Origin: Escherichia phage FL33
DNA: 64,000 bases
Strand: one strand, 5' to 3'
Sequence record: PP400788
Part shown: piece by piece, positions 15,478 to 52,528 of the stretch
Numbering within the stretch: the first letter of the stretch is position 1
Layout: every line of letters begins with the position of its first letter
Translations under genes and position numbers: made by a program
Notes under the pieces: generated by a model
Told to the model about the DNA's origin: nothing
The model's input: the letters and a program-made list of their open reading frames with translations, nothing else
The model's database searches: none

Positions 15478-15677
15478 GATTTATCACCATAGATGTCTCT
15501 CATCAATTTAAGCGCTGAGCGTTCTAATTTCTTTTCTTTCTCAGCACTAATCATTGATTTCATCCATTCTTCCGATTCGTTCTGAATTTCTTTATTTGCT
15601 TGTTCAACCCAACCATCATCAATATACATTGAGTTTGGTCTACTAAACCATTCAAGAATCTTCTTGAGAACTTTCAT
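15474..15677 (-). CDS. hypothetical protein, 67 aa
   Basis: ORF. Confidence 0.45.
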
Positions 15678-16149
15678 TTGTTTTACCTAAAACAATAGTA
15701 GGAGAATCGTCAAATTCATGAATTTTTAGCAATTTTGGATTTAAATTATTCCATACATAATAAATAAAGTATGATAAAGCATCTTCACTCGCAATTATAA
15801 ATTTATTTCCTTTATCTATTTTCCAGTCATATACTGAATCGTACGAATAAAAAGATAAAGGGTTATCATTATATTGTTCTGCGCTAACATTAATGTATTC
15901 GGATTTAGTAAATGCTTCAATTGCTCTAAACGGACTATTTGACACAGTTTCAATAATTCCGATCTTTTTAAGTTTTATTTCAGCATCTTCTGGAACTGGC
16001 ATTGAAACGAAATTTTCTACGAGATACATAGGGTTACGATAACCCTTATCAATCATTACGGCTACAGTAATTGGAACATCTTTAGCAAACGACATGCTAT
16101 TACTGCTAATATACATTTCAAACAAAATCGCTTCCATAATTTTCCTCAA
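15652..16149 (-). CDS. hypothetical protein, 165 aa
   Basis: ORF. Confidence 0.5.
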
Positions 16150-16490
16150 TCACAAGATGTAGATGAACAACTAGAATCACAAGAACTTCCACATGAATCG
16201 CCCGTCCATACATGAACAGGAACATTAGTATCATATGAATCAGAACTAGACTGTGTATTCTGTGTGTTAGATGATGTAGTAGGTACTGACCAGCGCCAAG
16301 GATTTTTATAATATTCTTGGGCTTCTTCATAAGTCATAGTAACTGCTTCTATTGTTCCATCTCCCATATAAACATACTCAACTACAGTTAAAGGAAGGTA
16401 GTCATTTGAAATAGGAACTACACCTTCCCCAGGAGTTGTAGAGAAAAAATCCGTAAAGAAACTTTTAAACCAATTAAAGATAAACATCAC
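16146..16490 (-). CDS. hypothetical protein, 114 aa, hydrophobic N-terminus and Ser/Cys-rich C-terminal tail
   Basis: ORF ending ...[17 protein letters not shown]. Confidence 0.5.
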
Positions 16491-16699
16491 AAAAATCCTC
16501 TTTGAAATTCGACTCTTTGAAATCCACCCCAGTCAGTATATCGCATTTCAGCATTGAACTCGACTGAACCATCTGCATGCATCATGAATGAATGCGTGAC
16601 GACATCACAATCCCAGCTTTTCATACCCCATTTATCAGCGATAGCTTTATCAAGAACCTTCTGGAGGTCTTCATTTGGTTTAATCCAACGATTTAACAT
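16487..16699 (-). CDS. hypothetical protein, 70 aa
   Basis: ORF downstream of early promoter 16726-16755. Confidence 0.5.
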   Translation of the reverse strand: MLNRWIKPNEDLQKVLDKAIADKWGMKSWDCDVVTHSFMMHADGSVEFNAEMRYTDWGGFQRVEFQRGFL

Positions 16700-16725
16700 A
16701 GTGTTCTCCTATATAAGATATTTTT

Positions 16726-16755
16726 ATTATACCACACTCATTTTGACATGTAAAC
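16726..16755 (-). promoter_or_regulatory. T4-type early promoter (GTTTAC ... TGGTATAAT)
   Basis: Near-consensus: GTTTAC 16750-16755, TATAAT 16726-16731. Confidence 0.6.
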
Positions 16756-16769
16756 CATAAAATGAAAAA

Positions 16770-16789
16770 AGGAATCCCGGAGGATTCCT
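16770..16789 (-). terminator. intrinsic terminator downstream of soc (8-bp stem, UCCG loop, U-tract)
   Basis: AGGAAUCC-UCCG-GGAUUCCU then UUUUUCAUUU in minus sense. Confidence 0.6.
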
Positions 16790-16797
16790 TAAATTAT

Positions 16798-17055
16798 TTA
16801 ACCACCGACACCTGGTGTCGGTGTAACAGTCCAAAGACCTTCATTAGCAGTGATCCATTCAGTACGCTGATTTTCTTCATATACTGTAGAATATGCTGCT
16901 TTTTCAGAAGGGAATGTCTGATAATGAGCACCAGAAATTTTGTGAACATCAGAATAAAGAGGGAAAGCTACAGAAATTTCTTTACCCTGAATTGTACCAC
17001 CATCAACTGCTTGGTCAAATGTTTTGATATTAACATAACCGCGAGTACTAGCCAT
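16798..17055 (-). CDS. soc: small outer capsid protein Soc, 85 aa
   Basis: Starts MASTRGYVNIKTF..., matching recalled T4 Soc; late promoter upstream. Confidence 0.85.
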   Translation of the reverse strand: MASTRGYVNIKTFDQAVDGGTIQGKEISVAFPLYSDVHKISGAHYQTFPSEKAAYSTVYEENQRTEWITANEGLWTVTPTPGVGG

Positions 17056-17085
17056 GTAATTCTCCTTTTATTTAAATTACATGAT

Positions 17086-17093
17086 TATTTATA
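17086..17093 (-). promoter_or_regulatory. T4 late promoter TATAAATA for soc
   Basis: Minus-sense TATAAATA about 30 nt upstream of soc ATG. Confidence 0.55.
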
Positions 17094-17123
17094 ATAAATT
17101 CTCGCGGCTTTTAAGACGAGCTG

Positions 17124-17642
17124 TTAATAACCTCGGTCTTGACGAGCGAAGTTTTCAGCATTTTTCAGATAATAAAGTTTAAAGATTTCTTCTGCTGTAA
17201 GACCAAGACCTTGGAACATGTTCAGAACGAAATGGAGAATATCAATCATTTCAAATTTAATTTCCAATTGGTCTTGTGGAGACAAATCAGTAATCAGAGT
17301 TTCACGGCGTTCACCATGCTGAGCTTTCCACGGCTTCCATACAGCAGATGCATCTTTTTCGCCATTGCTCATACCACCAAGAGAAGTCAGAAGTTCGCGG
17401 AATTCATCATCAATATAATCTTTCTGATTACGCAGCCAATCAACAACTTCACCTGCAGTAGCCAAATCATCAGGATGACGGTTATATTCAGGTTTATCTT
17501 TAGCTAAACGAATCTGCAGAGATTTCTGCATGTCAAGCATTACCTGCAGCGGGTCTTTTTCATCACCGAGAATATCCCAATATTCATTTTGAGCTTTATC
17601 AGCGCCTTCAATCAGTTGTGAACATTCGTTAAAGTAAGCCAT
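17124..17642 (-). CDS. 56: dCTPase/dUTPase gp56 (MazG-like), 172 aa
   Basis: MazG-like nucleotide pyrophosphohydrolase; start set at MAYFNE (17642) with AGGAAA RBS; track ORF extends to 17735. Confidence 0.8.
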   Translation of the reverse strand: MAYFNECSQLIEGADKAQNEYWDILGDEKDPLQVMLDMQKSLQIRLAKDKPEYNRHPDDLATAGEVVDWLRNQKDYIDDEFRELLTSLGGMSNGEKDASAVWKPWKAQHGERRETLITDLSPQDQLEIKFEMIDILHFVLNMFQGLGLTAEEIFKLYYLKNAENFARQDRGY

Positions 17643-17713
17643 TATTTTTCCTTTCAATTCATGGGTTAGTAGATTAATTATACAATAAATATATAAAGCA
17701 ATAAGGAGGACAT

Positions 17714-17914
17714 ATGGTACAAAAATTAATGGCACTTGTTAATGCCATCAAAGGTAATAAAAAACGTATAGCTTTTACTATTTCTGCTATGATAGGAATT
17801 TTACTTTGGAATTTTGTTTTATCACCAGTTGCTATTGCTCATGGCGTTAGTATTCCAGTAATTACTCTTGATACATTCGTGGATTTAGCATTTGCTTTAG
17901 TTGGGTTAATTTAA
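17714..17914 (+). CDS. hypothetical small membrane protein, 66 aa, on the opposite strand
   Basis: Strong SD AAGGAGGA 4 nt before ATG; two hydrophobic segments; fills the 56-61 gap. Confidence 0.4.
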   Translation: MVQKLMALVNAIKGNKKRIAFTISAMIGILLWNFVLSPVAIAHGVSIPVITLDTFVDLAFALVGLI

Positions 17915-18939
17915 ATCTTAGCATATTTAGATAGCCGCATTTTAGCCATCAACCCTTGGGCAATATTATTTTTCATATATTCCATAATTTGTTCAGGGGT
18001 TGCACCTTCCTTTCTAATCATATCATTGACGTCTTTTGATTTCCAGGGAGATTTATCCCAAAACATAACCCTTTCTCCTGCATCAACTAATTTAGTCATT
18101 CGTTTGATAGTGTCAGGGTGACGAGGTTCATTATCTAAAACCCACACTCGTCTATCTTTAAATGGAACAATTTCTAGGTCTAATTGACCGCCTGTAATAG
18201 CTATACCATTTTCAATAAAAAGCGAATCTATAGGTCCTTCTAGAACATATACATCGCCATCTTTAACCCGTTCGACACCGTAAATTTTTGTTGCCTCAGG
18301 ATAAGCTTTGATGGTAATATACTTTTGTGGAGCATCTTTCTTTAATGCACGCCCTTGAAACGACTCGGCTTTTCCATTAGCATTATAAATTGGAATAACA
18401 AGACGAGGCTCAGGTATTTCCTTTTTATATGTTCCCGGTGCTATGCTATTAACTAATTTAGGCCATTCAGTTGTAAACCAAAGATATTTCCATTTATCCT
18501 TTGGAATACAACGAGCTTTTACGTATTTTATAATTGGATGGTCTTCCGCCAGTTTATCTAATCTAATGCATGACGGAAGAGATTTAATTATTTTCTTCTC
18601 AGGTTGTTTAGGAAGTTCTTTAGGTTTTTCTACTGGACGACTTTTACCTTTTTCTTTTCTTATTTCAAAGATATACTCACGATATAAATCAGGTTCAAAC
18701 TCCTTTAAATATATTCCGATTGGTGCATGATAGTTACAGTTATAACAATGAATATTTCCTTCATTATTATCGCCATAATACCATCCACGAGCTTTATTCT
18801 GGTCGGTTTTTGAATCTCCACAAACAGGGCATCTAAACCGCAATTTAAAAGTTGAACTATTATTTACTTGTGTGAATTTAGGTAAATGAGCTAATGCACG
18901 GTATGCAAACTCATTATCAATCCAAGGTATTGATGACAT
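17911..18939 (-). CDS. 61: DNA primase gp61, 342 aa
   Basis: N-terminal Cys4 zinc ribbon (CPVCG...CYNC), TOPRIM-like core; length equals T4 gp61 as recalled. Confidence 0.9.
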   Translation of the reverse strand: MSSIPWIDNEFAYRALAHLPKFTQVNNSSTFKLRFRCPVCGDSKTDQNKARGWYYGDNNEGNIHCYNCNYHAPIGIYLKEFEPDLYREYIFEIRKEKGKSRPVEKPKELPKQPEKKIIKSLPSCIRLDKLAEDHPIIKYVKARCIPKDKWKYLWFTTEWPKLVNSIAPGTYKKEIPEPRLVIPIYNANGKAESFQGRALKKDAPQKYITIKAYPEATKIYGVERVKDGDVYVLEGPIDSLFIENGIAITGGQLDLEIVPFKDRRVWVLDNEPRHPDTIKRMTKLVDAGERVMFWDKSPWKSKDVNDMIRKEGATPEQIMEYMKNNIAQGLMAKMRLSKYAKI

Positions 18940-18941
18940 TT

Positions 18942-19106
18942 TTACTCTTCTTTTTCTTTAGATTCCTCTTTTTTCTTTTTAGGAATCTGTTCAGGACCTT
19001 TATTTACTACAGCGCCTGATGTTGTTCCAGTAGAGATATTTTCAGGATTACCACCTGAATCTCCAGCGACCATATCTTCTTTGATAAATTCTTTATATGT
19101 TTTCAT
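18942..19106 (-). CDS. small hypothetical protein, 54 aa, Lys/Glu-rich tail
   Basis: Hand translation MKTYKEFIKEDMVAG...; tightly packed between neighbours; not in ORF track. Confidence 0.35.
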   Translation of the reverse strand: MKTYKEFIKEDMVAGDSGGNPENISTGTTSGAVVNKGPEQIPKKKKEESKEKEE

Positions 19107-19107
19107 A

Positions 19108-19734
19108 TTAACCTCTATTCATAAAAGCATTAAAAATTTGGTCATCAATAGAAACATTTACTTTAGACTGTTTTTCAGATGGCAATTCATATCCACATAT
19201 TACAATTTTATGATCAATATCAAAATACACAGAAGCAATATGATTAATGATATTTTCAGTGAAGTCTAAATCAACATCAATGTCTTTTTGACCAAAACCC
19301 AAAGGATAAATAATGCGAGTAATTCGATTATCTTTAACAAAGATTCCACCGACATACTCTGTGCTGCGTTTAAAGTCTACACGCCGACGAAATGAAAAAT
19401 ATTCAGGCTCTTTATGAGCTCGGCTCATAGGGCACAACGAATAACTAGAATAAGAGATGTCAAATCCTACGCCTTCAATATGAACTAAATTGTCATGATT
19501 AAACCAATTATAATCATATGCCAAGTCCATTAGATTGTCATATGTGAAAGGCACCGGATTAACATCATTGGTCACAAGCATATAATTAGCAACTGCTATA
19601 ATTTCATTATTTTTAACGAAAACAAACCGTGATTGATGCGAATGACCTGGACCTGTGTTTTCACGATTAATGATATAACACTGGGCACCTTTATATTTGT
19701 ACGTGTCTTTACACTTGTGCATTTGATAAAGCAT
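19108..19734 (-). CDS. hypothetical protein, 208 aa
   Basis: ORF. Confidence 0.55.
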   Translation of the reverse strand: MLYQMHKCKDTYKYKGAQCYIINRENTGPGHSHQSRFVFVKNNEIIAVANYMLVTNDVNPVPFTYDNLMDLAYDYNWFNHDNLVHIEGVGFDISYSSYSLCPMSRAHKEPEYFSFRRRVDFKRSTEYVGGIFVKDNRITRIIYPLGFGQKDIDVDLDFTENIINHIASVYFDIDHKIVICGYELPSEKQSKVNVSIDDQIFNAFMNRG

Positions 19735-20027
19735 TATTCACCTACCACTTCAGCGATGATATTTTTATTATTAAAGTTTTTATCGCAATACAGAACATAA
19801 TTATACTGCATTACACCGCCAGACTTAAGTTGTTTTTGAACTTCGGCTTTCATTTCAGGACGATCACGCTCAACGATATTCATAATATCTGCTTCAATTT
19901 GAGTTTCAACCTCAGTCTGATCTGCAGTCATAGACCATTCGCACAAATCTTTATCATAACCTGCCATAGCAGGCTGAGCAGCACAAGAAGCTAAAGCAAA
20001 AATTGTGGCAAAGATAAATTTTTTCAT
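19734..20027 (-). CDS. sp: Spackle-like periplasmic protein, 97 aa
   Basis: Signal peptide MKKFIFATIFALASCAAQPAMA; 97 aa and position between 61 and 41 as recalled for T4 sp. Confidence 0.6.
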   Translation of the reverse strand: MKKFIFATIFALASCAAQPAMAGYDKDLCEWSMTADQTEVETQIEADIMNIVERDRPEMKAEVQKQLKSGGVMQYNYVLYCDKNFNNKNIIAEVVGE

Positions 20028-20087
20028 GATAATCTCCTCAGTAGTTTATGTTTATATAGTATCTCAATTTTCAACAAAAGTAAACAG

Positions 20088-20345
20088 TTATTTTAAAACT
20101 TCTGCGTAATCACATGTTACAAACTGTTTCTCTAACTTGACGATTTTACGAAAGTATCTTTTGCATTGGCGAATCTGCCGCTTCGTAGGGCGAACAGCAA
20201 ACTTAATAAATTCCACTCGACCAAATGGAGGACTTTCTTCTGCTGGAATATCTAACACCAATTCCCACGTATCTGCAATAAGTGCTTTGAATTGCGTATT
20301 TTTCCTGACGTTATACGGAGTGGGTTTAAATAAAACAATATGCAT
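20088..20345 (-). CDS. hypothetical protein, 85 aa
   Basis: ORF. Confidence 0.5.
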   Translation of the reverse strand: MHIVLFKPTPYNVRKNTQFKALIADTWELVLDIPAEESPPFGRVEFIKFAVRPTKRQIRQCKRYFRKIVKLEKQFVTCDYAEVLK

Positions 20346-20346
20346 A

Positions 20347-20529
20347 TTATCCTCGGCAATCTACTTCACATACTTTCTTGTCATCAATGAAAGCTTTAAC
20401 TAATGCTTTATTAACTTCAGCATATTGAGTAGTAGCCCATTGAACGTCATCTTTCATCATTGTGATTTCTTTAGTAAACATGCTTTCATTCTTAAACCAC
20501 CCCATAAAAACTACCTTTACCAATTCCAT
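20347..20529 (-). CDS. dmd: Dmd-like protein (antitoxin against host RnlA/LsoA), 60 aa
   Basis: 60-aa ORF immediately upstream-adjacent to gene 41, the recalled dmd position; own early promoter. Confidence 0.55.
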   Translation of the reverse strand: MELVKVVFMGWFKNESMFTKEITMMKDDVQWATTQYAEVNKALVKAFIDDKKVCEVDCRG

Positions 20530-20558
20530 AACAATCTCCTCATTTAACCAACAAGACT

Positions 20559-20588
20559 ACTATACCATAGTCTTGTCAGCTTGTAAAC
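20559..20588 (-). promoter_or_regulatory. T4-type early promoter with internal dyad
   Basis: GTTTAC 20583-20588, TGGTATAGT -10; dyad GACTACTAT/ATAGTCTTGTC. Confidence 0.55.
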
Positions 20589-22015
20589 TAAAATTTTAAT
20601 TCATTTGCCAAAGCATCTAACTGGGCTCGAGTGGATTCATTTCTTTGATAGCGATTCTGTTCAGCCTGAATCTGTTGTGAACCTGCTACTTCGTTCACTT
20701 CAGTTGGAGTAGAATCTTGTTCAATTTCTACCCATTTCTGATTTCCTTTTTGAACACCCATCAAAAACTTATTCCATTTATTCTTATCACCATATCGTGA
20801 TTTGATTTGCTTAATGAGTTGTTGTTCAGCAGCTGCCAACTCCTCGGTTTCAATGACCGCAAGCATAAAATCAGCTGTTGCTGGAAGACCAGCAGATTCT
20901 GCAATATCGCTCATGTTAACATCAGAAGAATCCCAAGCTTGTTTGCCGACCTGTGCTGCAGTCCAAAGAACAGTTTCGGTTTCAACAGCCAGAGCACGCA
21001 ATTCCTCTGCAATAGCTTTAACAGTTGTGTAACTATTTTCTGAATAAACTCTAATGCGGCAAGATTTACAAATACCCAGATAGTCTACAATAATGATTGT
21101 TGGAACAAAATTCTTCTTGAGCTTCAATTCATTCAAGAGAGACCTGAATGTGTTAGCATCTGCCCCACCAGTAGGATACTGTTTAACGATTAAACGGCCG
21201 AGAGTAGATTTCTCACGCCATTTTTCCATTTTTCCTTTATATTCAGCGTAAGAAATATGCCCATCATCAATGTCATCAAGAGAAACATCGAGCATATTAG
21301 CGTCAATACGTTTAGCACAGACTTCTTCTGCCATTTCCATGGAAATGTAAAGAACATTATGTCCGAGCTGTAAATAATCTGCTGCTAATGAACACAATCC
21401 TAATGACTTACCAACGTTAACGCCAGCCATTAAAACGTTCAGTGTTCCAGTCTCAGCTCCGCCTTTAGTAATTTTGTTTAGAATTCTGAGTTTAAATGGA
21501 ACCTTACGAGCTTTATTCATATAAGATAGCCAACGTGCTTCGTAGTCATCCATCCAATCATGACCAACGTAGCTATCAAATGAAATTGATAATGCTTGAC
21601 GCATAATGTCAGGAATAGCACCAACATCCGGCATTTTTTTATTTCGTTTTTCCGGAGGAAGCTCAGCATTAGTTTGAATTTCGATTATTTTAGACGTAGC
21701 ATTAAACATCGCCCTTTGCTGAACATATTTTTCTGTTTCTTTTACTAACCAACTGTGGTCTTCTGGAGAATCGGCTAGTTTTGAAATAAGTGTTTTTACA
21801 CCAGAATATTCTGTTTCAGTAAATGAACTATTTTCTAATGCAACATTTAACGCATTAATAGATGGAACGCTATGGTACTCATTAACATGAGATTTAATTA
21901 ATTTGAATGTATTTTTAGCTGGACCACTTTCAAAATATTCTGAATCCATATATGGCCAAACTTTTGAAAAATAAGCTTGATCAAATATGAGATGAGAAAG
22001 AATAATTTCTACCAC
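20588..22015 (-). CDS. 41: replicative DNA helicase gp41 (DnaB-like), 475 aa
   Basis: Length equals T4 gp41 as recalled; RecA-like core; position. Confidence 0.9.
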   Translation of the reverse strand: MVEIILSHLIFDQAYFSKVWPYMDSEYFESGPAKNTFKLIKSHVNEYHSVPSINALNVALENSSFTETEYSGVKTLISKLADSPEDHSWLVKETEKYVQQRAMFNATSKIIEIQTNAELPPEKRNKKMPDVGAIPDIMRQALSISFDSYVGHDWMDDYEARWLSYMNKARKVPFKLRILNKITKGGAETGTLNVLMAGVNVGKSLGLCSLAADYLQLGHNVLYISMEMAEEVCAKRIDANMLDVSLDDIDDGHISYAEYKGKMEKWREKSTLGRLIVKQYPTGGADANTFRSLLNELKLKKNFVPTIIIVDYLGICKSCRIRVYSENSYTTVKAIAEELRALAVETETVLWTAAQVGKQAWDSSDVNMSDIAESAGLPATADFMLAVIETEELAAAEQQLIKQIKSRYGDKNKWNKFLMGVQKGNQKWVEIEQDSTPTEVNEVAGSQQIQAEQNRYQRNESTRAQLDALANELKF

Positions 22016-22024
22016 ACTTACTCC

Positions 22025-22381
22025 TTAAAAGAATTTAAATTTTTTCTTTGACCTTTTATTAAATGCATCTTGTAGTTGCATTGTAATACATTTTTCTACA
22101 TGAGGAGCTAACTCAGCTTTTCTTTCTTGGTCAAGAACAGCAAAGTCCATTACGACTTTTCCATCAACCCAATCTAATTTTGTCACATACACAATGTGTG
22201 TAGAACCATCTTCTAGTTTAATGATAATCTCCTGGATAACATTTTCCATGGCAGATTTAATTATCTTAAGAGATTCATTAAAAAGACGTTCTTTTCTTTC
22301 TTCTTCCCCCTCCGAAGAGGGGGATTCGTCGATAATTTCTAAATCTAAATCATCTTTATTCATTAAATTCTTCCATATCAC
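22025..22381 (-). CDS. 40: gp40-like protein, 118 aa
   Basis: Position between 41 and uvsX; acidic N-terminus. Confidence 0.5.
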   Translation of the reverse strand: MIWKNLMNKDDLDLEIIDESPSSEGEEERKERLFNESLKIIKSAMENVIQEIIIKLEDGSTHIVYVTKLDWVDGKVVMDFAVLDQERKAELAPHVEKCITMQLQDAFNKRSKKKFKFF

Positions 22382-23537
22382 TTAACTGATCTAGGTCAGT
22401 TTCTAAATCAGCTGCTGATTTACTTTTACTTTCTGGAGATTTAAATTTTTCAACCTTTGAGTTAATTAATTCATCAACTTCGGCTTCAACAATTTCATTA
22501 CTATCAATAGCACCTAATTGATAAGCACGTTTAATAGCATCTCGGAATGGTTGATGCTTAAATAAAGGACCCCAGAATGTAGTGCAGTTGGTATCTTTTG
22601 CACGCCAAGATTTTTCTTCGCGAATCATCTCGCCTGTTTCTTCGTCAAGAAATTCACGAGCATACCAGCCATTTTTAGGTTTTACTACAAATCCTAATTC
22701 AAGAGCCATATCTAACAATCCAGAATAAGGATCGATACCACCGTCAAATTTAACATCAATAAAGAATTTACTTTTTTCTTTAACGGTACGAGATTTTTCT
22801 ACATTTAGAACAAATTGATACCCCTGAAGATCAGAACCATCTTTAATCTGGCGCTTACCGATAATGAATACAGTATCAGCCGAATACATTACGCCTGTAC
22901 CACCTGTCATCACGGTTTTACTAAACATTTCAATTGTTTCAATTGTATGGTTAACCGCAACGCATGGAATATTTTTAATACTAAAATAAGGAGTAACAAT
23001 ACGGAATAATGACTTCAGCGATTTAGCACGAGTCATATCTGCCACAGATTTTTCATTCAAGGCATCTTCCGTTTCTTTCTTAGAAGCCATATTACCGATT
23101 GAGTCGATGAATACAATAACCTTTTCACCACGCTCAATAGCTTCAAGCTGATTCACCATATCAATTTTCAGTTGTTCAACTGACTGAATTGGTGTATGAA
23201 TTACTCGTTCCGGGTCAACTCCCATGGATCGCAAATAAGCTGGAGTGATACCAAATTCGCTATCATAAAATAGACAAACTGCATCAGGATATTTGTTCAA
23301 ATACGCCGCAACCATAGTCAAAGACATATTTGATTTAAAGTGTTTAGAAGGACCTGCAAAAATGGTTAAACCAGACTGCATACCACCATCAATCGCACCG
23401 GAAATAGCAATATTAAGCATTGGGATTTTTGTACGGATTACATCCTTTTCATTAAAGAATTTAGATGTAGTCAGTTCAGCAGTCATTTTAGAAGTGGAAG
23501 CTTTAATCAAACGGGATTTTAAATCTGCAATAGACAT
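22356..23537 (-). CDS. uvsX: UvsX recombinase (RecA-like), 393 aa
   Basis: Near-identical to recalled T4 UvsX over most of its length. Confidence 0.95.
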   Translation of the reverse strand: MSIADLKSRLIKASTSKMTAELTTSKFFNEKDVIRTKIPMLNIAISGAIDGGMQSGLTIFAGPSKHFKSNMSLTMVAAYLNKYPDAVCLFYDSEFGITPAYLRSMGVDPERVIHTPIQSVEQLKIDMVNQLEAIERGEKVIVFIDSIGNMASKKETEDALNEKSVADMTRAKSLKSLFRIVTPYFSIKNIPCVAVNHTIETIEMFSKTVMTGGTGVMYSADTVFIIGKRQIKDGSDLQGYQFVLNVEKSRTVKEKSKFFIDVKFDGGIDPYSGLLDMALELGFVVKPKNGWYAREFLDEETGEMIREEKSWRAKDTNCTTFWGPLFKHQPFRDAIKRAYQLGAIDSNEIVEAEVDELINSKVEKFKSPESKSKSAADLETDLDQLSDMEEFNE

Positions 23538-23614
23538 TCATTTTTTCCATAGGCATCATTATATTTTCCTCACCGGTTAAAGATAGAGTAATTATAACAC
23601 AATAAATTTAGGCA

Positions 23615-24457
23615 TTAATCAACTACTATTGGATGAATAGCATTAAACTTATGAAACGCTTCTGATTTTTCTTTGCGCGAAACACACATGCGAAGAACCT
23701 TTAATGGCTCATCTTCTTCACCCAACGATTTTCTCTTTTCAATATTCGATGTTTTCCAACGAGCTTGCTCTGGAAATTCTCTATTGATTTGCTCAAGCGC
23801 TCTATTATGTTTAGAATTGCTACGAATTGAACTACATCCACCGGGGGCTTGTGCTTTTCCGGATACAACCAGATATTTGAACAAGGCCAAATGCGGATAA
23901 CCTTGATTAATTAAATTGAGAAATGCATACATATCTTCGCATAAATCAATTTTTCCATACCCAATTTGTTCTGTTGTAAGTTTTCCAAGGTCATACCATG
24001 TATTCGTGAATCCATATGAATTTTCACGATAATTACCCCAAGATGAAGTAATTTTAAAAATAGGTAGACGAGCATGGCCATGATAATACCCGCAATCCAT
24101 GGCATCTTCAACGTATTGAATCAATTCATAGAACTGTTCACGAGTTAATTGATTAATTTTATCTACGCAGCGACGATCATCTTTCTTTCGCATTGAACTC
24201 ATACGAATAGTAGTATCATCATCGATCATCCAAATTCGTTGACCTGCATACATATCAGTAATTGCTTTACGAGTACCGGCAATTCCATTAACATCATCAG
24301 GAATAGCTATAATTTTAGCTCTAGACCCATAAGCATCATAATAAGCTTTTTCTTCGTGTTCACGCACTACAATATGGGGTTCATAATCAGTCGGAAACAT
24401 ATTAAGGGCAGAAACTGCCCCGACACGCTGATAACTTGGAATTACGAATTGAATCAT
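23615..24457 (-). CDS. GT-A-fold glycosyltransferase, 280 aa; probable beta-glucosyl-HMC-alpha-glucosyltransferase (T2/T6 type)
   Basis: IPSYQR N-terminus and DDD motif; sits at the T4 beta-gt locus but is not T4 beta-gt. Confidence 0.5.
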   Translation of the reverse strand: MIQFVIPSYQRVGAVSALNMFPTDYEPHIVVREHEEKAYYDAYGSRAKIIAIPDDVNGIAGTRKAITDMYAGQRIWMIDDDTTIRMSSMRKKDDRRCVDKINQLTREQFYELIQYVEDAMDCGYYHGHARLPIFKITSSWGNYRENSYGFTNTWYDLGKLTTEQIGYGKIDLCEDMYAFLNLINQGYPHLALFKYLVVSGKAQAPGGCSSIRSNSKHNRALEQINREFPEQARWKTSNIEKRKSLGEEDEPLKVLRMCVSRKEKSEAFHKFNAIHPIVVD

Positions 24458-25095
24458 TTAAGTGCCTTACATTTGTCAAAATGGTATCTTGTCATATTTG
24501 GCCCACGTCCTTTTAGTCCGCAATGCGGACATATTTTTTCTATCAAATTATGAGGTTTTCCTTTACGATTTTTAGACATCGTTTCTTTAATTATTTTAGC
24601 TTTTTCTGCGCCAAAAATTTCTTCATAAGTTTTACCAGAATTTTCCTTTGCTCGATTTATAATTCCATATGCCTGCTCATTTTTACCATACATTGGATTA
24701 CCTTCGCCTTTCATTCTTTTAGAATGGTCAGGACGCTTAATTCCACGAAAGGCATTTCCACATTTATATCTTTCTTCTGGAGATAGTTTCTTACCGTACA
24801 TTCCATTTAATTTGCCCGGAAAACTTCCTCCCCATGCTTCATTCTTTAAATTATATGAATCTGGACAATTAGCAGCATCTAAACAAGTTAAAATAATTTC
24901 TTCAACCTGTCTAAACATTGGTCCTTCATATAATATTTCTTTATTAAAGGATTTTATTCCATATTTCTTTTTAGCATGTTGCCAAACTACACCCGAACCA
25001 TCATAATTCAGGTTGTGACCATCATGACTTCCTATATACCACTTTTTAGTTTTAGGATGTTTATACTTATAAACATGTGGCGCATTTACTTCCAT
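24454..25095 (-). mobile_element. Seg-like GIY-YIG homing endonuclease gene, 213 aa
   Basis: VYKYKHPKTKKWYIGSH GIY-YIG motif plus NUMOD-like repeats; both ends overlap flanking genes. Confidence 0.7.
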
Positions 25096-25826
25096 TTTCC
25101 AGTATAATCCTTTTTAGCAATATGGGTTTCACCGGTGTTCCACCAATGGTCAACCAAATAAAACTGATTTTCGTACACATGAAGACTTCCAACATTCCAT
25201 ATAATAGAACCTGCTTTATACTGTCGTGATGGGTCGCCTGCATTCAAATCAGATACTAATTTATCTAGTACGTATTTTTGCCACGCATAATCATTACGAT
25301 AGCCTGCCCAGCAGTCATTGCTTCTCATATTAACAACTGCATTGACTTTCTTATCACGAATTAAGTATTGTACTGTATTAGTACACATGAAATCTGACAT
25401 ACCATCTTTATTGTAGTCAAATTGCATGGATGGACGAGTATAAATCATGATACCACGTCGAGAATCAGGATTTTGACCAAGTTCAGCTAAACACATATCA
25501 TACTGGGCATAGTTATCTTCTGACCAGATAGCCCAACCATAATTCGAGTTAATTTCGCCTTTAGAAGATGCTACTTGCTGCCAAATCTTCGGTGTTTCAC
25601 CCGGAATATCTTTAACGAACAAGCTTTTAGATTTATACCATTCAAGTTCACGCTGAATGTATTCATCATTAAGAGCGCCAAAAATAAACGGTTCATCTGC
25701 TACAAATGATGCGCCAATAATTTCAATAGTTTTAACACCAGTTTTATCAACTACGAAATCTTTTTCTTTTAATGCAAGCCCCAAATGAAGACGGATTTCT
25801 TCAACTGTCATAGAGTCACTAATCAT
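25086..25826 (-). CDS. 42: dCMP hydroxymethylase gp42, 246 aa
   Basis: Thymidylate-synthase-like fold; length equals T4 gp42 as recalled. Confidence 0.9.
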   Translation of the reverse strand: MISDSMTVEEIRLHLGLALKEKDFVVDKTGVKTIEIIGASFVADEPFIFGALNDEYIQRELEWYKSKSLFVKDIPGETPKIWQQVASSKGEINSNYGWAIWSEDNYAQYDMCLAELGQNPDSRRGIMIYTRPSMQFDYNKDGMSDFMCTNTVQYLIRDKKVNAVVNMRSNDCWAGYRNDYAWQKYVLDKLVSDLNAGDPSRQYKAGSIIWNVGSLHVYENQFYLVDHWWNTGETHIAKKDYTGKWK

Positions 25827-25833
25827 TTAAACC

Positions 25834-25983
25834 TCAATTGATACATTCATATTTAACTTGTAACAGTAATAAACCCCAACCTAAAATAATAGTTGGAATC
25901 ATAAGAGGAACCGTTACACTATAGTATATACTTATTATAATCATCAAGATTAAAAGCAACACTGCTATAATTTTGCTTTTCAT
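25834..25983 (-). CDS. small hydrophobic membrane peptide, 49 aa
   Basis: Hand translation; ATGA start/stop overlap with imm; not in ORF track. Confidence 0.3.
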   Translation of the reverse strand: MKSKIIAVLLLILMIIISIYYSVTVPLMIPTIILGWGLLLLQVKYECIN

Positions 25984-26231
25984 TCCTTCTCTCTGATGAT
26001 AATTACCTGATTTGGTTGTGCAGACTTTTTGGTTTCACCCGCAATTGACCAAATAAATGTAATAAACCAACCAATAATTGACCAGTTAAACAGTAAAGAT
26101 GTGAAAAAGATTCCTACTGTCGATTTTGACCCACGCATCAAGGCGATGAACCATGGAAGCATGTATATAATAATAGCCAACACACCTGAAACTAAAACCA
26201 TAAAAATTGAACCTGCTACTAAAGTTTCCAT
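25980..26231 (-). CDS. imm: superinfection immunity protein Imm, 83 aa
   Basis: Two TM segments; length equals T4 Imm as recalled; position between 43 and 42. Confidence 0.8.
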   Translation of the reverse strand: METLVAGSIFMVLVSGVLAIIIYMLPWFIALMRGSKSTVGIFFTSLLFNWSIIGWFITFIWSIAGETKKSAQPNQVIIIREKE

Positions 26232-26238
26232 CTTTTCC

Positions 26239-26631
26239 TCACTTAGTCAAATTTTTTACGCATGAATTATAAGAATTCACTACATACTCCATCGGAGCAT
26301 TTTTACCAGTACGCCATTGGTAATTATTAGCCCAATTAGCCCAAATTTCGGCGCAGTAGTTTTCAATTTTTTCTTCGCGTGTAATTACATCTGAATTACG
26401 ATATGCTTGGGCAGATTCATCTGGACGAATAGCCTCATCAAAATTCGCCTGCATTTGTTCTACTGTCTGTTTTGGAGCTTCTTTATAACACTTGACATTA
26501 GGATTATAAAACTTGCTTGAACAGTTTACAATTTTTCCTACATCAGACTGATTTACTACCGGTCCTTGAGCTACACAACCAGTAAGACCTAATGCAATAA
26601 CCAAAATAGCGATTTTCATTTCATTCTCCAA
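26239..26631 (-). CDS. putative lipoprotein, 130 aa
   Basis: Signal peptide with lipobox LTGC. Confidence 0.55.
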   Translation of the reverse strand: MENEMKIAILVIALGLTGCVAQGPVVNQSDVGKIVNCSSKFYNPNVKCYKEAPKQTVEQMQANFDEAIRPDESAQAYRNSDVITREEKIENYCAEIWANWANNYQWRTGKNAPMEYVVNSYNSCVKNLTK

Positions 26632-26653
26632 ATCCGTATCAGTTGATAGTTGT

Positions 26654-26683
26654 ATAGTACCATGGAAGAACAGTCTTGTAAAC
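26654..26683 (-). promoter_or_regulatory. T4-type early promoter
   Basis: GTTTAC 26678-26683, TGGTACTAT -10. Confidence 0.55.
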
Positions 26684-26770
26684 AGTTTTGTGAAAAATTT
26701 TTCAATGAATTCAAAGGGTCCAGAATTATCTGTTTTTCATAAGTATAGATTTATATTACTTGTATGAAAA

Positions 26771-26788
26771 AGGGACCCGGAGGTCCCT
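26771..26788 (-). terminator. intrinsic terminator downstream of gene 43
   Basis: AGGGACC-UCCG-GGUCCCU hairpin then UUUUU in minus sense. Confidence 0.6.
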
Positions 26789-26800
26789 AGATTTATTCTA

Positions 26801-29497
26801 TCAGCCAAACAGGAAGTCTAACGAAGCTTTTTCTTCATAGTCCATACCAGCCGATTCACACATACCCGCAAGCGGTTTAACAAACGATTTTTGGAACAAA
26901 GTTGAGTAGTCAATCCAAGACAGTACGTCAGAACGAATTTCTTTTGGAAGTTCCGTACCCGATGGCCAAGCAATACACTTGTCACCAAATGGATTTCCCT
27001 CACGTAATGGAAGAACCATTACTTTATTTCCATCCAAAATTGGAGCTACACCTAAACCGCTAACAGCTCGACGATAAGTTAGCACCCCACGAATGTGGAA
27101 CGGGCATTTAAATCCTGGCCAACCTTTATCGTCATATTTCGCTATATCGTTTGCGGTTTTTACTTCAGCAATAACTTTATAGTCAAGTTGACGATATTCT
27201 TTCTCAAAGTTCTTATAGTATTCTTGGACAGACTCTTCACCTTCCTGAAGAATGCGACGAATACTTTCTTCGAGAGCTTCTTGTACTGCTTTTGGTGTTG
27301 AACTCTGCTGAGTTTCCATACCCATGATTTTTAGATGTGGTTCAGCAAATCGCTTATCTTCCATATCATAAACGTTTAGAGCATAACGTTTTTTCGCTTT
27401 CCAAAATCCACCAACACCCTTTGAACCAAGCGGAGGACAAGAAATAGCTTCACGGTCCATATGCATCAGATGCTCGCGGTTATTCATATAATCACATAAC
27501 TCACGATATGCAACATCAATCATAGGTTCCATCTTTTTCTTACCGAACTGATTCATGAATTCAACTAAATCATTTTGTTCTTTAAAGCGGTCAAGACCTA
27601 CTTTTTCAATTACTTTATCTACACAAACATATACCGAATCAGTATCACCTGCTGCGATGAAATCTTCACCATCAGTTCCACATACTTTATTCAGATATTC
27701 ATTAATTTTACGAGCAATCCACTGAATACCAACTTGACCAAAAATTGTGATAGCAGTAGCATTTCGCAAATCATAATAGCGGAAATGAATATTGCCAAGA
27801 GCACCATAAAGACTGTTAATAAGAATTTTACGGTTCAGCTGATTTGTGTTAGCAAGTGTAGCTGCTTTTTCACATTCTTCGATCAGACTATTAAGAACAG
27901 ATTCGGTGTAATTCGATAATTCATTTAAGAAATCATCATTGAACTTAACATATCGTTCAACTTCTGGTTTAGTTGAACAAGACCCTGCACCTTTCATAAT
28001 AATCTTTTTAATAGCTTCGGCATTCATTTCTTCAGCGAACATTTTCTTTTTCCAATCTTTACGCTGGAAAAATACTTTAGCGATTTCCTTTGGAATGATA
28101 CCTTCTTGATGCTTATCATACATCCATCCATTCGGAGAACATGAATACTCATCACTTGGCTTAGGAGCTGTTCCTGCGATATATTCATGAATTGGATGAA
28201 CTTTGAACTGTCCGCGAATAGTCTCAGGACTAATGTTAACCTGACGAATAATACTTGGATACAGAGACGTCAAGTCAAAACTCATAATGTATCGACGGGC
28301 AATCGCTTTAGGTTCAAACACAAATGCACCTGGAAAACTTTGTTTAACGTGCGAACCTTGTTGAGGAATAACCTTATGTTCACCTTTCAATGAGTTAAAA
28401 ATAATAGCATCCCAAGTTTTAATAGGACTCATTACACCAGAAAAAGGCATTTTAGCATAATAAGACATACTTAAAACTAGATCGATAAACCCACGAATTT
28501 TATCAATTGCTTGAACTGATTCTACGTCAATAATATTATAACTAATGTATCGTTGATGATTAGTCTCACGAAGTTTATTAATAGGACCATCATATGGTAA
28601 TTTACCTTTTTTGGTTTCATGTTGAGCAACTGATTCCAAAGAGAATGATGGCAAATTAGTAAATGCGAATTTCTTGTACAAATCTAAATAATCAAGAATA
28701 GATACGCCATCAATAGAATAAATTTCTTTGCTACCGTACATATTTTGAATTAGTTTAGATTTTACTCGACCGATTGGAGAGAAGCGTTTCATACTACGTT
28801 CACCGAGAACCATTTTAACACGATTCATGATATACGGAACGTCAAATCCCTCAATATTCCAACCGGTAAAAATAGCAGGTCGTTTCTGTTCCCAGAGATT
28901 AATATATTCCATGAGCATATCACGCTCATTATCAAATGGCATATAAATTACTCGGTCAAGAATTTCTTGAGGAACTTCATCACCACCTTCACAGTCAAGC
29001 TTAGCAGCTAACTTTGCATCCCATTTTGATACTGAACCGTACATTGAATTCAACAAATCAAAGACGTAAAAACGGTCGTCAATTGAATCATAATGAGTGA
29101 TAGCATCAATTTCATATTCTGCTTTCATTGGGTCAGGAAATTTATCGCCAGTAACCTCAATGTCACAGTTAGCTACACGAACAAATTTTCGGTCATAAAC
29201 AATTTCTGAACCATATGTATCACTGATATAAGCGAGTTTAAAATCGTTCATACCGAGAGCTTCGAGACCGATGTCTTCCATTCGTTTCATCCAATCTCGG
29301 GCATCTTTCATTGATGGAAATTTTTGAGGAGCGCAGTTTTTACCGTAAATGTCTTTGTATTTTGATTCTTCCTTACAATGTCTAAACATAGTCGGAAGAT
29401 ATTCTACTTCACGAGTACGTTCCTTTCCATTTTCATCAATATAACGTTCAACAATATTATTTCCGACTGTTTCGATAGAGATATAAAATTCTTTCAT
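26801..29497 (-). CDS. 43: DNA polymerase gp43 (family B), 898 aa
   Basis: Exo and pol motifs (DIE, YGDTDS); length equals T4 gp43 as recalled. Confidence 0.95.
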   Translation of the reverse strand: MKEFYISIETVGNNIVERYIDENGKERTREVEYLPTMFRHCKEESKYKDIYGKNCAPQKFPSMKDARDWMKRMEDIGLEALGMNDFKLAYISDTYGSEIVYDRKFVRVANCDIEVTGDKFPDPMKAEYEIDAITHYDSIDDRFYVFDLLNSMYGSVSKWDAKLAAKLDCEGGDEVPQEILDRVIYMPFDNERDMLMEYINLWEQKRPAIFTGWNIEGFDVPYIMNRVKMVLGERSMKRFSPIGRVKSKLIQNMYGSKEIYSIDGVSILDYLDLYKKFAFTNLPSFSLESVAQHETKKGKLPYDGPINKLRETNHQRYISYNIIDVESVQAIDKIRGFIDLVLSMSYYAKMPFSGVMSPIKTWDAIIFNSLKGEHKVIPQQGSHVKQSFPGAFVFEPKAIARRYIMSFDLTSLYPSIIRQVNISPETIRGQFKVHPIHEYIAGTAPKPSDEYSCSPNGWMYDKHQEGIIPKEIAKVFFQRKDWKKKMFAEEMNAEAIKKIIMKGAGSCSTKPEVERYVKFNDDFLNELSNYTESVLNSLIEECEKAATLANTNQLNRKILINSLYGALGNIHFRYYDLRNATAITIFGQVGIQWIARKINEYLNKVCGTDGEDFIAAGDTDSVYVCVDKVIEKVGLDRFKEQNDLVEFMNQFGKKKMEPMIDVAYRELCDYMNNREHLMHMDREAISCPPLGSKGVGGFWKAKKRYALNVYDMEDKRFAEPHLKIMGMETQQSSTPKAVQEALEESIRRILQEGEESVQEYYKNFEKEYRQLDYKVIAEVKTANDIAKYDDKGWPGFKCPFHIRGVLTYRRAVSGLGVAPILDGNKVMVLPLREGNPFGDKCIAWPSGTELPKEIRSDVLSWIDYSTLFQKSFVKPLAGMCESAGMDYEEKASLDFLFG

Positions 29498-36214: not shown

Positions 36215-36230
36215 AAGGGCCGAAGCCCTT
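36215..36230 (-). other. UUCG-loop hairpin at 3' end of alpha-gt
   Basis: AAGGGC-UUCG-GCCCUU overlapping the stop codon. Confidence 0.45.
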
Positions 36231-37432
36231 TATTTTGTAATAATGTCAAACTGCTCTTTAAAGCAGAAGCTTGAATCTTGATGCTGATACAAAAATTCAT
36301 AAGCTTTTTCGCGTTCACGGTCATAAAGAGCTCGGTCAGATGACAGTTCTTTAATACGTTCAAATGTTGATTCCATGTCATTTTCATCAAACCAAACGAT
36401 ACCGCTATCGTGCGAAATTAATGGAGTATTATCAACACGGAATTTTAAATTTTCGCCAGTAGATTTCCAAAATACTGGAATTGTTCCACATGCACCAAGC
36501 TCGAGATGAGTATATTCTAAAGAACGCTGTAGATATTTTTTATCTAATTTACTCAGCTGATAACCAAATCCGGATTTACTCATGCGTTCAAGCATTTCGC
36601 TATTTACATAACGGTCGAGAATTTGCGTCGGCAAATTAGGAGCAATTTTAATTTGGTCTACTTGATGAAGACGATAATACTCGTATGGAATTCCTTTTTC
36701 TTTAATAGGAATGAACGCTGGAGAACGTTCCAGACCTTCCATAATAGTACTTAGTCCTGCAGGTTTAAGATGTTTTTCGTGAAAATCAAACATCTGATAA
36801 AAGCCTTTCCATGTAGTAGTACGACCAATCCAACGGTTGATATTCATGTTAATTTCAGAAACATCTTTCCAGTAAGTTGATCGAACCTTCGCAATATCCA
36901 TAGGAGGCTGAAAGTTATATACAGTCGGTGCTTCTTCAATATCATCAAACAGTGAAACAGTTTCTGGATACCATTCTTTCATTAAAACTTTATTAAAATC
37001 GCCATTATCAGAATGGCTAAAAATAACATCAGCTCGACGAACAGTTTCTTCTAATCCCAAATTTCGACGCAAAGAAAGAGAAGAATGGTCATGCTGATAA
37101 ACTACAACACGAACCGAAGGTTTAATGTTATCAATAATTTTTTTATAGTTATTAATCGTGTCTTCTTCAACTGAAGTAGCAGGAACTGAATTGATAACTA
37201 GAATATCACAATCATTTACCAACTTAAGTGTTTTATCGTATTCTTTTGCCAATAAAACCGGAATTGAAAATGATTTATAATCATGCGCGCAATTACGAGT
37301 AAATGATTTATCTTTAGCATAAACCAAAGTTACTTCATGACCATTTTTAATAAACCAATCACGCTGCTCAAGAGAAAATTTAGTTACACCGCAACCTTCA
37401 AGACCTCGAGCCATAAAAATGCATACTTTCAT
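36230..37432 (-). CDS. a-gt: DNA alpha-glucosyltransferase, 400 aa
   Basis: Close match to recalled T4 alpha-gt N-terminus and length. Confidence 0.9.
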   Translation of the reverse strand: MKVCIFMARGLEGCGVTKFSLEQRDWFIKNGHEVTLVYAKDKSFTRNCAHDYKSFSIPVLLAKEYDKTLKLVNDCDILVINSVPATSVEEDTINNYKKIIDNIKPSVRVVVYQHDHSSLSLRRNLGLEETVRRADVIFSHSDNGDFNKVLMKEWYPETVSLFDDIEEAPTVYNFQPPMDIAKVRSTYWKDVSEINMNINRWIGRTTTWKGFYQMFDFHEKHLKPAGLSTIMEGLERSPAFIPIKEKGIPYEYYRLHQVDQIKIAPNLPTQILDRYVNSEMLERMSKSGFGYQLSKLDKKYLQRSLEYTHLELGACGTIPVFWKSTGENLKFRVDNTPLISHDSGIVWFDENDMESTFERIKELSSDRALYDREREKAYEFLYQHQDSSFCFKEQFDIITK

Positions 37433-51808: not shown

Positions 51809-52528
51809 TTAGGATTCTTCTAAATGTCTTTTCTGAAAAGTTGATACCATACTACGATACGGTTCATTTGGATATCCATGTTTTATAGCTTCCTTTGTAA
51901 ATTTTCTCCATCCACATTTAGTTTCTTTCCAAAGCTCGAATAATTCATCTTCATACTGCCATATAGTTAAATGAGAACGCTTTGCAGCTTTAATTCCATT
52001 AATATGCTTTTCTTTTACTACAGGATTGCTTAGTTTCTTTTTAATAATATTACTAACTTTTCTAACAAAAACTGGGTCCTTATATCGTTGCGAAGTTTTT
52101 ATTGAAGTGTTTAATTTAGCTTCCGGCGTGGATGTGACCTCTTTCATCTTTTTCTTCATATGCTGTATATGATTAGGATTTTTCCATAAATTTATAGAAT
52201 GCTTTTTGCATTTTATCCTAGTTTCATCTGCAACCTTTCCTCCTTCACCCCCGTATGACAGGTTAACGCAGTTTTTTCCATATTTCAATTTACCTGCCAT
52301 GATATATAATATTTCGGCTTGTACCATTTTATCATAATTATCAAAAACTTCTAAAACCGTTTTTGATAATATATGGTCATTTGACACTTTTACACGTTCT
52401 ATATAATTTCCACTACCAACATACGAATCATTGATGTTATTAGTTATATGTCGACCATAATAGTATTTCTTAATACCTGTCTTTAAATTTAATATTTCAG
52501 TTTTATAGATAGTAAAATATTTTTTCAT
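51809..52528 (-). mobile_element. Seg-like GIY-YIG homing endonuclease gene, 239 aa
   Basis: TIYKTEILNLKTGIKKYYYGRH ... YVGSG motif arrangement as in T4 Seg proteins; stop overlaps neighbour start. Confidence 0.55.

Follow-up and report, generated by a model that had tools for sequence, protein, structure and literature searches.

Which glucosyltransferase lies between uvsX and gene 42 in this phage, and what modification of its DNA would that enzyme predict? The reference point is T4 beta-glucosyltransferase (beta-gt), which uses UDP-glucose and joins the sugar to modified phage DNA by a beta-glycosidic bond. An earlier note had proposed that beta-gt is replaced here by a GT-A-like glycosyltransferase in combination with an intact alpha-gt, as in phages T2 and T6, and that the DNA should consequently differ from that of T4 in its glucosylation and restriction sensitivity. 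The window, by which we mean the whole 64-kb stretch of DNA that was analysed, corresponds exactly, as reverse complement, to positions 96391-160390 of Escherichia phage FL34 (PP400789.1), and a 25-kb stretch is likewise 100% identical. The record gives pig faeces from Denmark as the origin of FL34. The features that matter for the argument are these:

17127..17642, minus strand: gene 56, dCTPase/dUTPase, found by tblastn with T4 gp56 (74% identity, full length)
22356..23537, minus strand: uvsX, downstream of ba-gt
23615..24457, minus strand: ba-gt (also ggt or TAGT), beta-glucosyl-HMC-alpha-glucosyltransferase, 280 aa, 843 nt, GT-A fold
23933..23938, minus strand: E174-D175 acidic pair of ba-gt, invariant in alignment A4, candidate catalytic base
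24215-24223, minus strand: DDD of ba-gt, D79-D81, within WMIDDDT; coding strand GATGATGAT
24425-24442, minus strand: IPSYQR motif of ba-gt, residues 6-11, read from the sequence; end of strand beta-1 in the nucleotide-sugar-binding domain
24454..25095, minus strand: Seg-like GIY-YIG homing endonuclease gene, 213 aa, between gene 42 and ba-gt
25086..25826, minus strand: gene 42, dCMP hydroxymethylase, 246 aa, Pfam thymidylate synthase family, 94% identical to T4 gp42
36230..37432, minus strand: a-gt, DNA alpha-glucosyltransferase, 400 aa, intact ORF matching Pfam PF11440 (AGT) over its full length (5e-236)

The translation of 23615..24457 agrees with the earlier description of a 280-aa protein with an N-terminal IPSYQR and a DDD motif, and its N-terminus reads MIQFVIPSYQRVGA. 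The ORF is a real gene and not a chance reading frame, because a 100% nucleotide-identical copy occurs in FL34, megablast retrieves it from 476 phage records (Escherichia, Shigella, Yersinia, Salmonella and Citrobacter phages), a homologue search with the protein reaches E = 3e-187, and the product matches two protein families. These are PHROG 842, 'beta-glucosyl-HMC-alpha-glucosyltransferase' (1.8e-88), and Pfam PF20691, the TET-associated glycosyltransferases (TAGT), with a score of 40.3 bits (cut-off 27.5) and a match spanning profile positions 2-205 of 205. Many of the 476 records are already annotated as beta-glucosyl-HMC-alpha-glucosyltransferase; no NCBIfam model matches either ba-gt or a-gt. 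Two plus-strand ORFs overlap the gene (23673-23900, 75 aa; 24239-24553, 104 aa), and they were treated as antisense chance ORFs since hundreds of phages preserve the minus-strand frame.

Over 280 aa the protein shares 97.5% of its residues with T2 ba-gt; its identity to T6 ba-gt is 97%. It occupies the same position between uvsX and gene 42 as in those two phages. It is not the T4 enzyme, just as the earlier note had held: BLASTP against T4 beta-gt finds no similarity (best E 3.4), and a Pfam scan of the protein finds no match to PF09198, the T4 beta-gt family. Two large protein searches yielded only 10 and 15 cluster representatives in turn, the most distant of them 27% identical, and the family looks narrow at the sensitivity of these searches. 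In a 14-sequence alignment of homologues (A4), positions I6, P7, S8, Y9 and R11 are invariant columns, as are D79, D80 and D81. IPSY, R11, DDD and E174-D175 are among the residues that stay unchanged down to the most distant homologues. We consider it very probable that the gene is the orthologue of T2/T6 ba-gt in a T2-like Tequatrovirus and that its product works as a second-step DNA glucosyltransferase.

The predicted fold fits this assignment. A PDB sequence search with ba-gt returned no related entry, its sole match being a chance one (E 0.77), and a single-sequence AlphaFold run gave an unusable model (pLDDT 38.8). The prediction was redone with alignment A4, and the resulting AF2 model has a pLDDT of 88.1 and a pTM of 0.87. 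Its N-terminal part alternates strands and helices (strands at 3-7, 28-32, 48-52 and 74-77), with the DDD at 79-81 placed directly after the fourth strand, beta-4. The model consists of a single Rossmann-like alpha/beta/alpha domain that is structurally similar to solved GT-A enzymes, and the acidic motif after beta-4 is of the DxD type found in that class. It does not have the two-domain GT-B fold of T4 beta-gt (PDB 1JG7). From the GT-A match, the DDD is a putative DxD-type metal and UDP-sugar binding motif. E174-D175 might supply the catalytic base of an inverting GT-A enzyme, and the loop at 203-209, which is modelled with low confidence, might be a mobile lid. TAGT proteins have previously been modelled as GT-A enzymes that are sister to GT2 (PMC13216743).

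The rest of the modification pathway is also present. The alpha-gt gene is intact, as had been claimed, and its 400-aa product shares 99% identity with its T2 counterpart and 91% with the T4 and T6 proteins. A tblastn search with T4 beta-gt over the whole 167-kb FL34 genome found no homologue (best E 5), which rules out a beta-gt hidden elsewhere in the genome, and a-gt and ba-gt are each single-copy in FL34. Since a-gt, gp42 and gp56 are found and the beta-gt search is empty, the substrate-producing steps are intact and the genome holds no beta-glucosylating GT-B enzyme. Here ba-gt thus co-occurs with alpha-gt, gp42 and gp56 where beta-gt is absent, and its pairing with alpha-gt is the T2/T6-type combination that the earlier note had recognized.

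The wording that ba-gt "replaces" T4 beta-gt holds only in part. The gene is syntenic with beta-gt and unrelated to it, but the phrase takes T4 as the norm, and it is the ba-gt arrangement that is the common state of T4-like coliphages. T4 is the exception, because ba-gt occurs in 476 phage records and T4 beta-gt DNA in only 29, essentially T4 and its closest kin. These counts agree with the published finding that T4 is unique among RefSeq phages in pairing an alpha-GT with a beta-GT (PMC13216743).

The locus itself holds more than was first described. The earlier note had placed a single gene between uvsX and gene 42; ba-gt is indeed there, but so is a second gene, the 213-aa homing endonuclease. 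Its product matches PHROG 314, 'homing endonuclease' (5.6e-31), and is 37% identical to the N-terminus of T4 SegA (E 1.4e-9), while its matches to NUMOD3 and TIGR01453 both fall below the cut-offs. This same element occupies the gene 42/ba-gt site in 77 phage records and is absent from the site in T2, T6 and T4. T4 also has two genes between uvsX and gene 42, segA and beta-gt, but segA lies on the other flank of beta-gt than the FL34-type endonuclease does relative to ba-gt. This endonuclease is a neighbour of ba-gt and stands outside the modification pathway. It could help to spread neighbouring ba-gt alleles by co-conversion of its flanks in mixed infections. A second Seg-like homing endonuclease gene is present at 51833-52510 on the minus strand, with 25-26% identity to T4 SegA (E 5e-10) and SegF (E 1e-6); it corresponds to the FL34 CDS at 107863-108582, which is annotated 'homing endonuclease'.

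Despite the insertion, ba-gt still lies tightly packed, head-to-tail, behind the genes upstream, just as T2 ba-gt does behind gene 42, because the endonuclease gene begins within the last 10 nt of gene 42 and its stop codon shares an ATGA with the start codon of ba-gt. That ba-gt is expressed is suggested only by these overlapping start and stop codons. A promoter and terminator scan of 23000-27000 found 17 promoter-like sites where 17.0 are expected from shuffling, which is chance level, and we therefore make no claim about a dedicated ba-gt promoter.

If the chemistry established for T2, T6 and their close relatives carries over to the FL34-type enzyme, then the pathway would run as follows. 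Gp42 would supply hydroxymethyl-dCMP and gp56 would remove dCTP, such that hydroxymethyl-dCTP replaces dCTP and 5-hmC takes the place of C in the DNA. After replication, alpha-gt, a GT-B enzyme, would transfer an alpha-linked glucose from UDP-glucose to approximately three quarters of the 5-hmC. The N-terminal Rossmann-like domain of ba-gt (IPSYxR, DDD) would bind UDP-sugar and metal, and the enzyme would add a second glucose from UDP-glucose to the first in a beta-1,6 linkage, with inversion, to form gentiobiosyl-hmC. By analogy with its close relatives this allele is probably active, and the predicted DNA would contain unglucosylated 5-hmC (about 25-33%), alpha-glucosyl-hmC and gentiobiosyl-hmC. 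No beta-glucosyl-hmC is expected because the genome has no beta-gt.

Published measurements on relatives describe just such DNA. Alpha-GT glucosylates about 75% of 5-hmC, and ba-gt/TAGT adds a beta-1,6 glucose to the product; T2 DNA carries about 70% alpha-glucosyl, about 5% gentiobiosyl and about 25% naked 5-hmC, and T6 DNA about 3%, about 72% and about 25%, respectively (bioRxiv 10.64898/2026.02.25.707755; PMC13216743). In ten natural Tequatrovirus isolates with an alpha-GT and a TAGT gene syntenic with T4 beta-GT, LC-MS detected 5-hmdC, alpha-glc-mdC and alpha-gentiobiosyl-mdC, at roughly 1:2:2 or, in a second group, roughly 1:0:2, and found no beta-glc-mdC (PMC13390438). Deletion of ba-gt from T6 leaves only alpha-glucosyl-hmC and makes the phage more sensitive to Brig1, an alpha-glucosyl-hmC glycosylase (PMC11078745). 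BapA releases no glucose from T6 DNA, and its authors take this to mean that BapA cannot remove glucose from gentiobiosyl-hmC. Owing to their naked 5-hmC, T2, T6 and eleven T-even BASEL phages (Bas35-Bas45) are sensitive to Brig3 (bioRxiv 10.64898/2026.02.25.707755), and GmrSD-type enzymes cut all of these modified forms (PMC13216743). A glucosylation and restriction pattern unlike that of T4 is thus already documented for this gene set in relatives (PMC13390438, PMC11078745, PMC13216743), and by analogy it would apply to this phage.

How many bases become di-glucosylated is not settled by the presence of ba-gt, and the ratio runs from 1:2:2 to about 1:0:2 among phages of the Durham Collection. 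Close alleles go with widely different gentiobiosyl fractions, about 5% in T2, about 40% in group iii of the Durham phages and about 67-72% in Durham group iv and T6, and for this reason the quantitative pattern cannot be read from sequence. We compared the window allele with those of Durham phages that have LC-MS data, three from each modification group (Solly, TB37 and CP; Geo, EL and BGP). The high-gentiobiosyl phages Solly, TB37 and CP share a consensus allele. The window protein departs from this consensus by five private, conservative substitutions (N19, A51, K92, I101 and V278), all at variable columns of the family, and it keeps R11, the DDD, E174-D175 and every other family-invariant residue of A4. 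The intermediate phages Geo, EL and BGP have an allele of their own (V50, I89, K95, R97, I101, S202 and H203). T2 differs from the consensus only by R11H and P251S.

The R11H change in T2 is a CGT to CAT substitution in codon 11 (T2 record LC348380) at an arginine that is invariant in A4; the corresponding window codon is at 24425-24427. Over the first 70 nt of ba-gt, only the seven T2 records and SV76 are identical to T2; the other 435 matching records differ, RB32 and Bas44 by exactly the R11H base. The public T6 records have their own peculiarities. In MH550421, codon 10 of ba-gt is an amber codon (CAG to TAG), and the annotation starts at M20, giving 261 aa. In AP018814, a 3-nt deletion in a GAT repeat turns the invariant DDD into DD and leaves 279 aa. 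These lesions may be stock mutations or sequencing errors, and whichever their cause, they are odd for the textbook gentiobiosyl phage.

A tblastn search of FL34 with T4 and T2 Dam found no Dam methyltransferase at E<1e-3, including in the interval 17643-17910 between gene 56 and gene 61. The dam gene is absent from T6 and the high-gentiobiosyl Durham phages and present in T2, T4 and the intermediate-ratio Durham phages, a pattern that probably reflects phylogeny and not causation. Because the window allele keeps R11 where T2 has H11 and the genome has no dam, as in T6 and the high-gentiobiosyl Durham phages, we lean with low certainty toward gentiobiosyl-rich, T6-like DNA in this phage, on the strength of a correlation in a handful of phages. 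A broader proposal is that small allelic differences set the di-glucosylated share. R11H would then explain the 5% of T2 versus the 72% of T6, the seven-residue allele would explain the intermediate ratio of Geo, EL and BGP, the R11 allele would give T6-like DNA here despite a T2-type alpha-gt, and the endonuclease could spread such alleles. We put this forward tentatively, and taken as a whole it is rather doubtful.

The orthologue could instead be weakly active or inactive, in which case the DNA would be T2-like, with alpha-glucosyl-hmC, naked 5-hmC and 5% or less gentiobiosyl-hmC. T2 itself provides the precedent, having an intact-looking ba-gt and yet only about 5% gentiobiosyl-hmC, and the window resembles T2 in its alpha-gt (99% identity) and carries five substitutions in ba-gt. 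The gene also appears to acquire lesions readily, judging from the amber codon at position 10 and the DDD to DD change in the T6 records. However, those five substitutions sit at variable columns, the private R11H of T2 is absent, R11, DDD, E174-D175 and all other invariant residues are retained, and alleles that are 98% identical (Solly, TB37) go with DNA that is about two-thirds gentiobiosyl. A weak or inactive enzyme is therefore improbable.

That ba-gt acts like T4 beta-gt and places a single beta-glucose directly on 5-hmC left free by alpha-gt is very improbable: the shared synteny and the beta linkage that both enzymes would form speak for it, as does the occurrence of TAGT homologues in many phages without an alpha-GT or beta-GT, which leaves the acceptor specificity of the wider family unsettled (PMC13216743), but ba-gt has no sequence or fold kinship to the T4 enzyme (GT-A versus GT-B), phages with this gene set lack beta-glc-mdC and retain naked 5-hmC at about 25-33%, and deletion of T6 ba-gt turns gentiobiosyl-hmC into alpha-glucosyl-hmC (PMC11078745).

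With second-step glucosylation as the preferred reading, the locus carries little weight as a discovery. The gene, its product, the GT-A fold, the synteny with T4 beta-gt and the defence effects are already known; the ba-gt gene set is the majority state in sequenced T4-like coliphages, and how it affects Brig1, BapA/Brig3 and GmrSD-type defences has been published. What is new is confined to three side findings: R11H, private to T2; the ba-gt lesions of the two public T6 genomes; and the insertion of the homing endonuclease gene. R11H is a candidate, cheaply testable explanation of why T2 and T6 differ, as has long been known, in glucose content. A prediction of 5-hmC, alpha-glucosyl-hmC and gentiobiosyl-hmC with no beta-glucosyl-hmC bears on the choice of restriction enzymes, sequencing chemistry and hosts.

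The practical value lies in annotation of the FL34 record, where ba-gt goes under the bare name 'glucosyl transferase', and gene 42 and the adjacent endonuclease gene each appear as 'hypothetical protein'. The same record labels a long run of unrelated genes 'thioredoxin' (for example, at 105770-114533) and others 'molybdenum ABC transporter'. Several of its genes, including thymidylate synthase (record positions 15492-17368) and nrdA (17926-21094), are apparently split around homing endonuclease genes.

Four sets of known enzymes place this gene. One comprises cellular GT-A (GT2-like) inverting enzymes such as WrtF (9omh), AvpGT (9jma), TarP (6h1j) and GlfT2 (4fix), which are 8-16% identical to ba-gt; ba-gt differs from them in having a sugar on duplex DNA as its acceptor and an extra C-terminal region of ~70 residues. 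T4 beta-gt (PF09198) shares with ba-gt a syntenic position next to gene 42 and an adjacent Seg-type endonuclease gene (segA), but it is a GT-B enzyme of 351 aa whereas ba-gt is a GT-A enzyme of 280 aa (PMC13216743 for the fold). The acceptors differ as well: T4 beta-gt acts on 5-hmC itself, and the literature on the T2/T6 enzymes assigns ba-gt the glucose of alpha-glucosyl-hmC (PMC11078745, PMC13216743).

The T2 and T6 ba-gt enzymes agree with the window gene in their 280-aa length, their locus between uvsX and gene 42, their partners alpha-gt, gene 42 and gene 56, and their conserved motifs. The window protein lacks the T6-specific residues N40, G55 and H106 and has R11 where T2 has H11, and an endonuclease gene separates ba-gt from gene 42 in the window but not in T2 or T6. 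The Durham phages form the remaining set. Their nucleoside profiles come from LC-MS, and the group iii allele, which goes with the 1:2:2 ratio, differs from the window allele at V50, I89, K95, R97, S202 and H203. Like FL34, the Durham Tequatrovirus genomes have an alpha-GT and no beta-GT, and their TAGT genes (Solly, TB37 and CP; Geo, EL and BGP) lie at the same locus and are 96.4-98.2% identical to the window gene over 280 aa.
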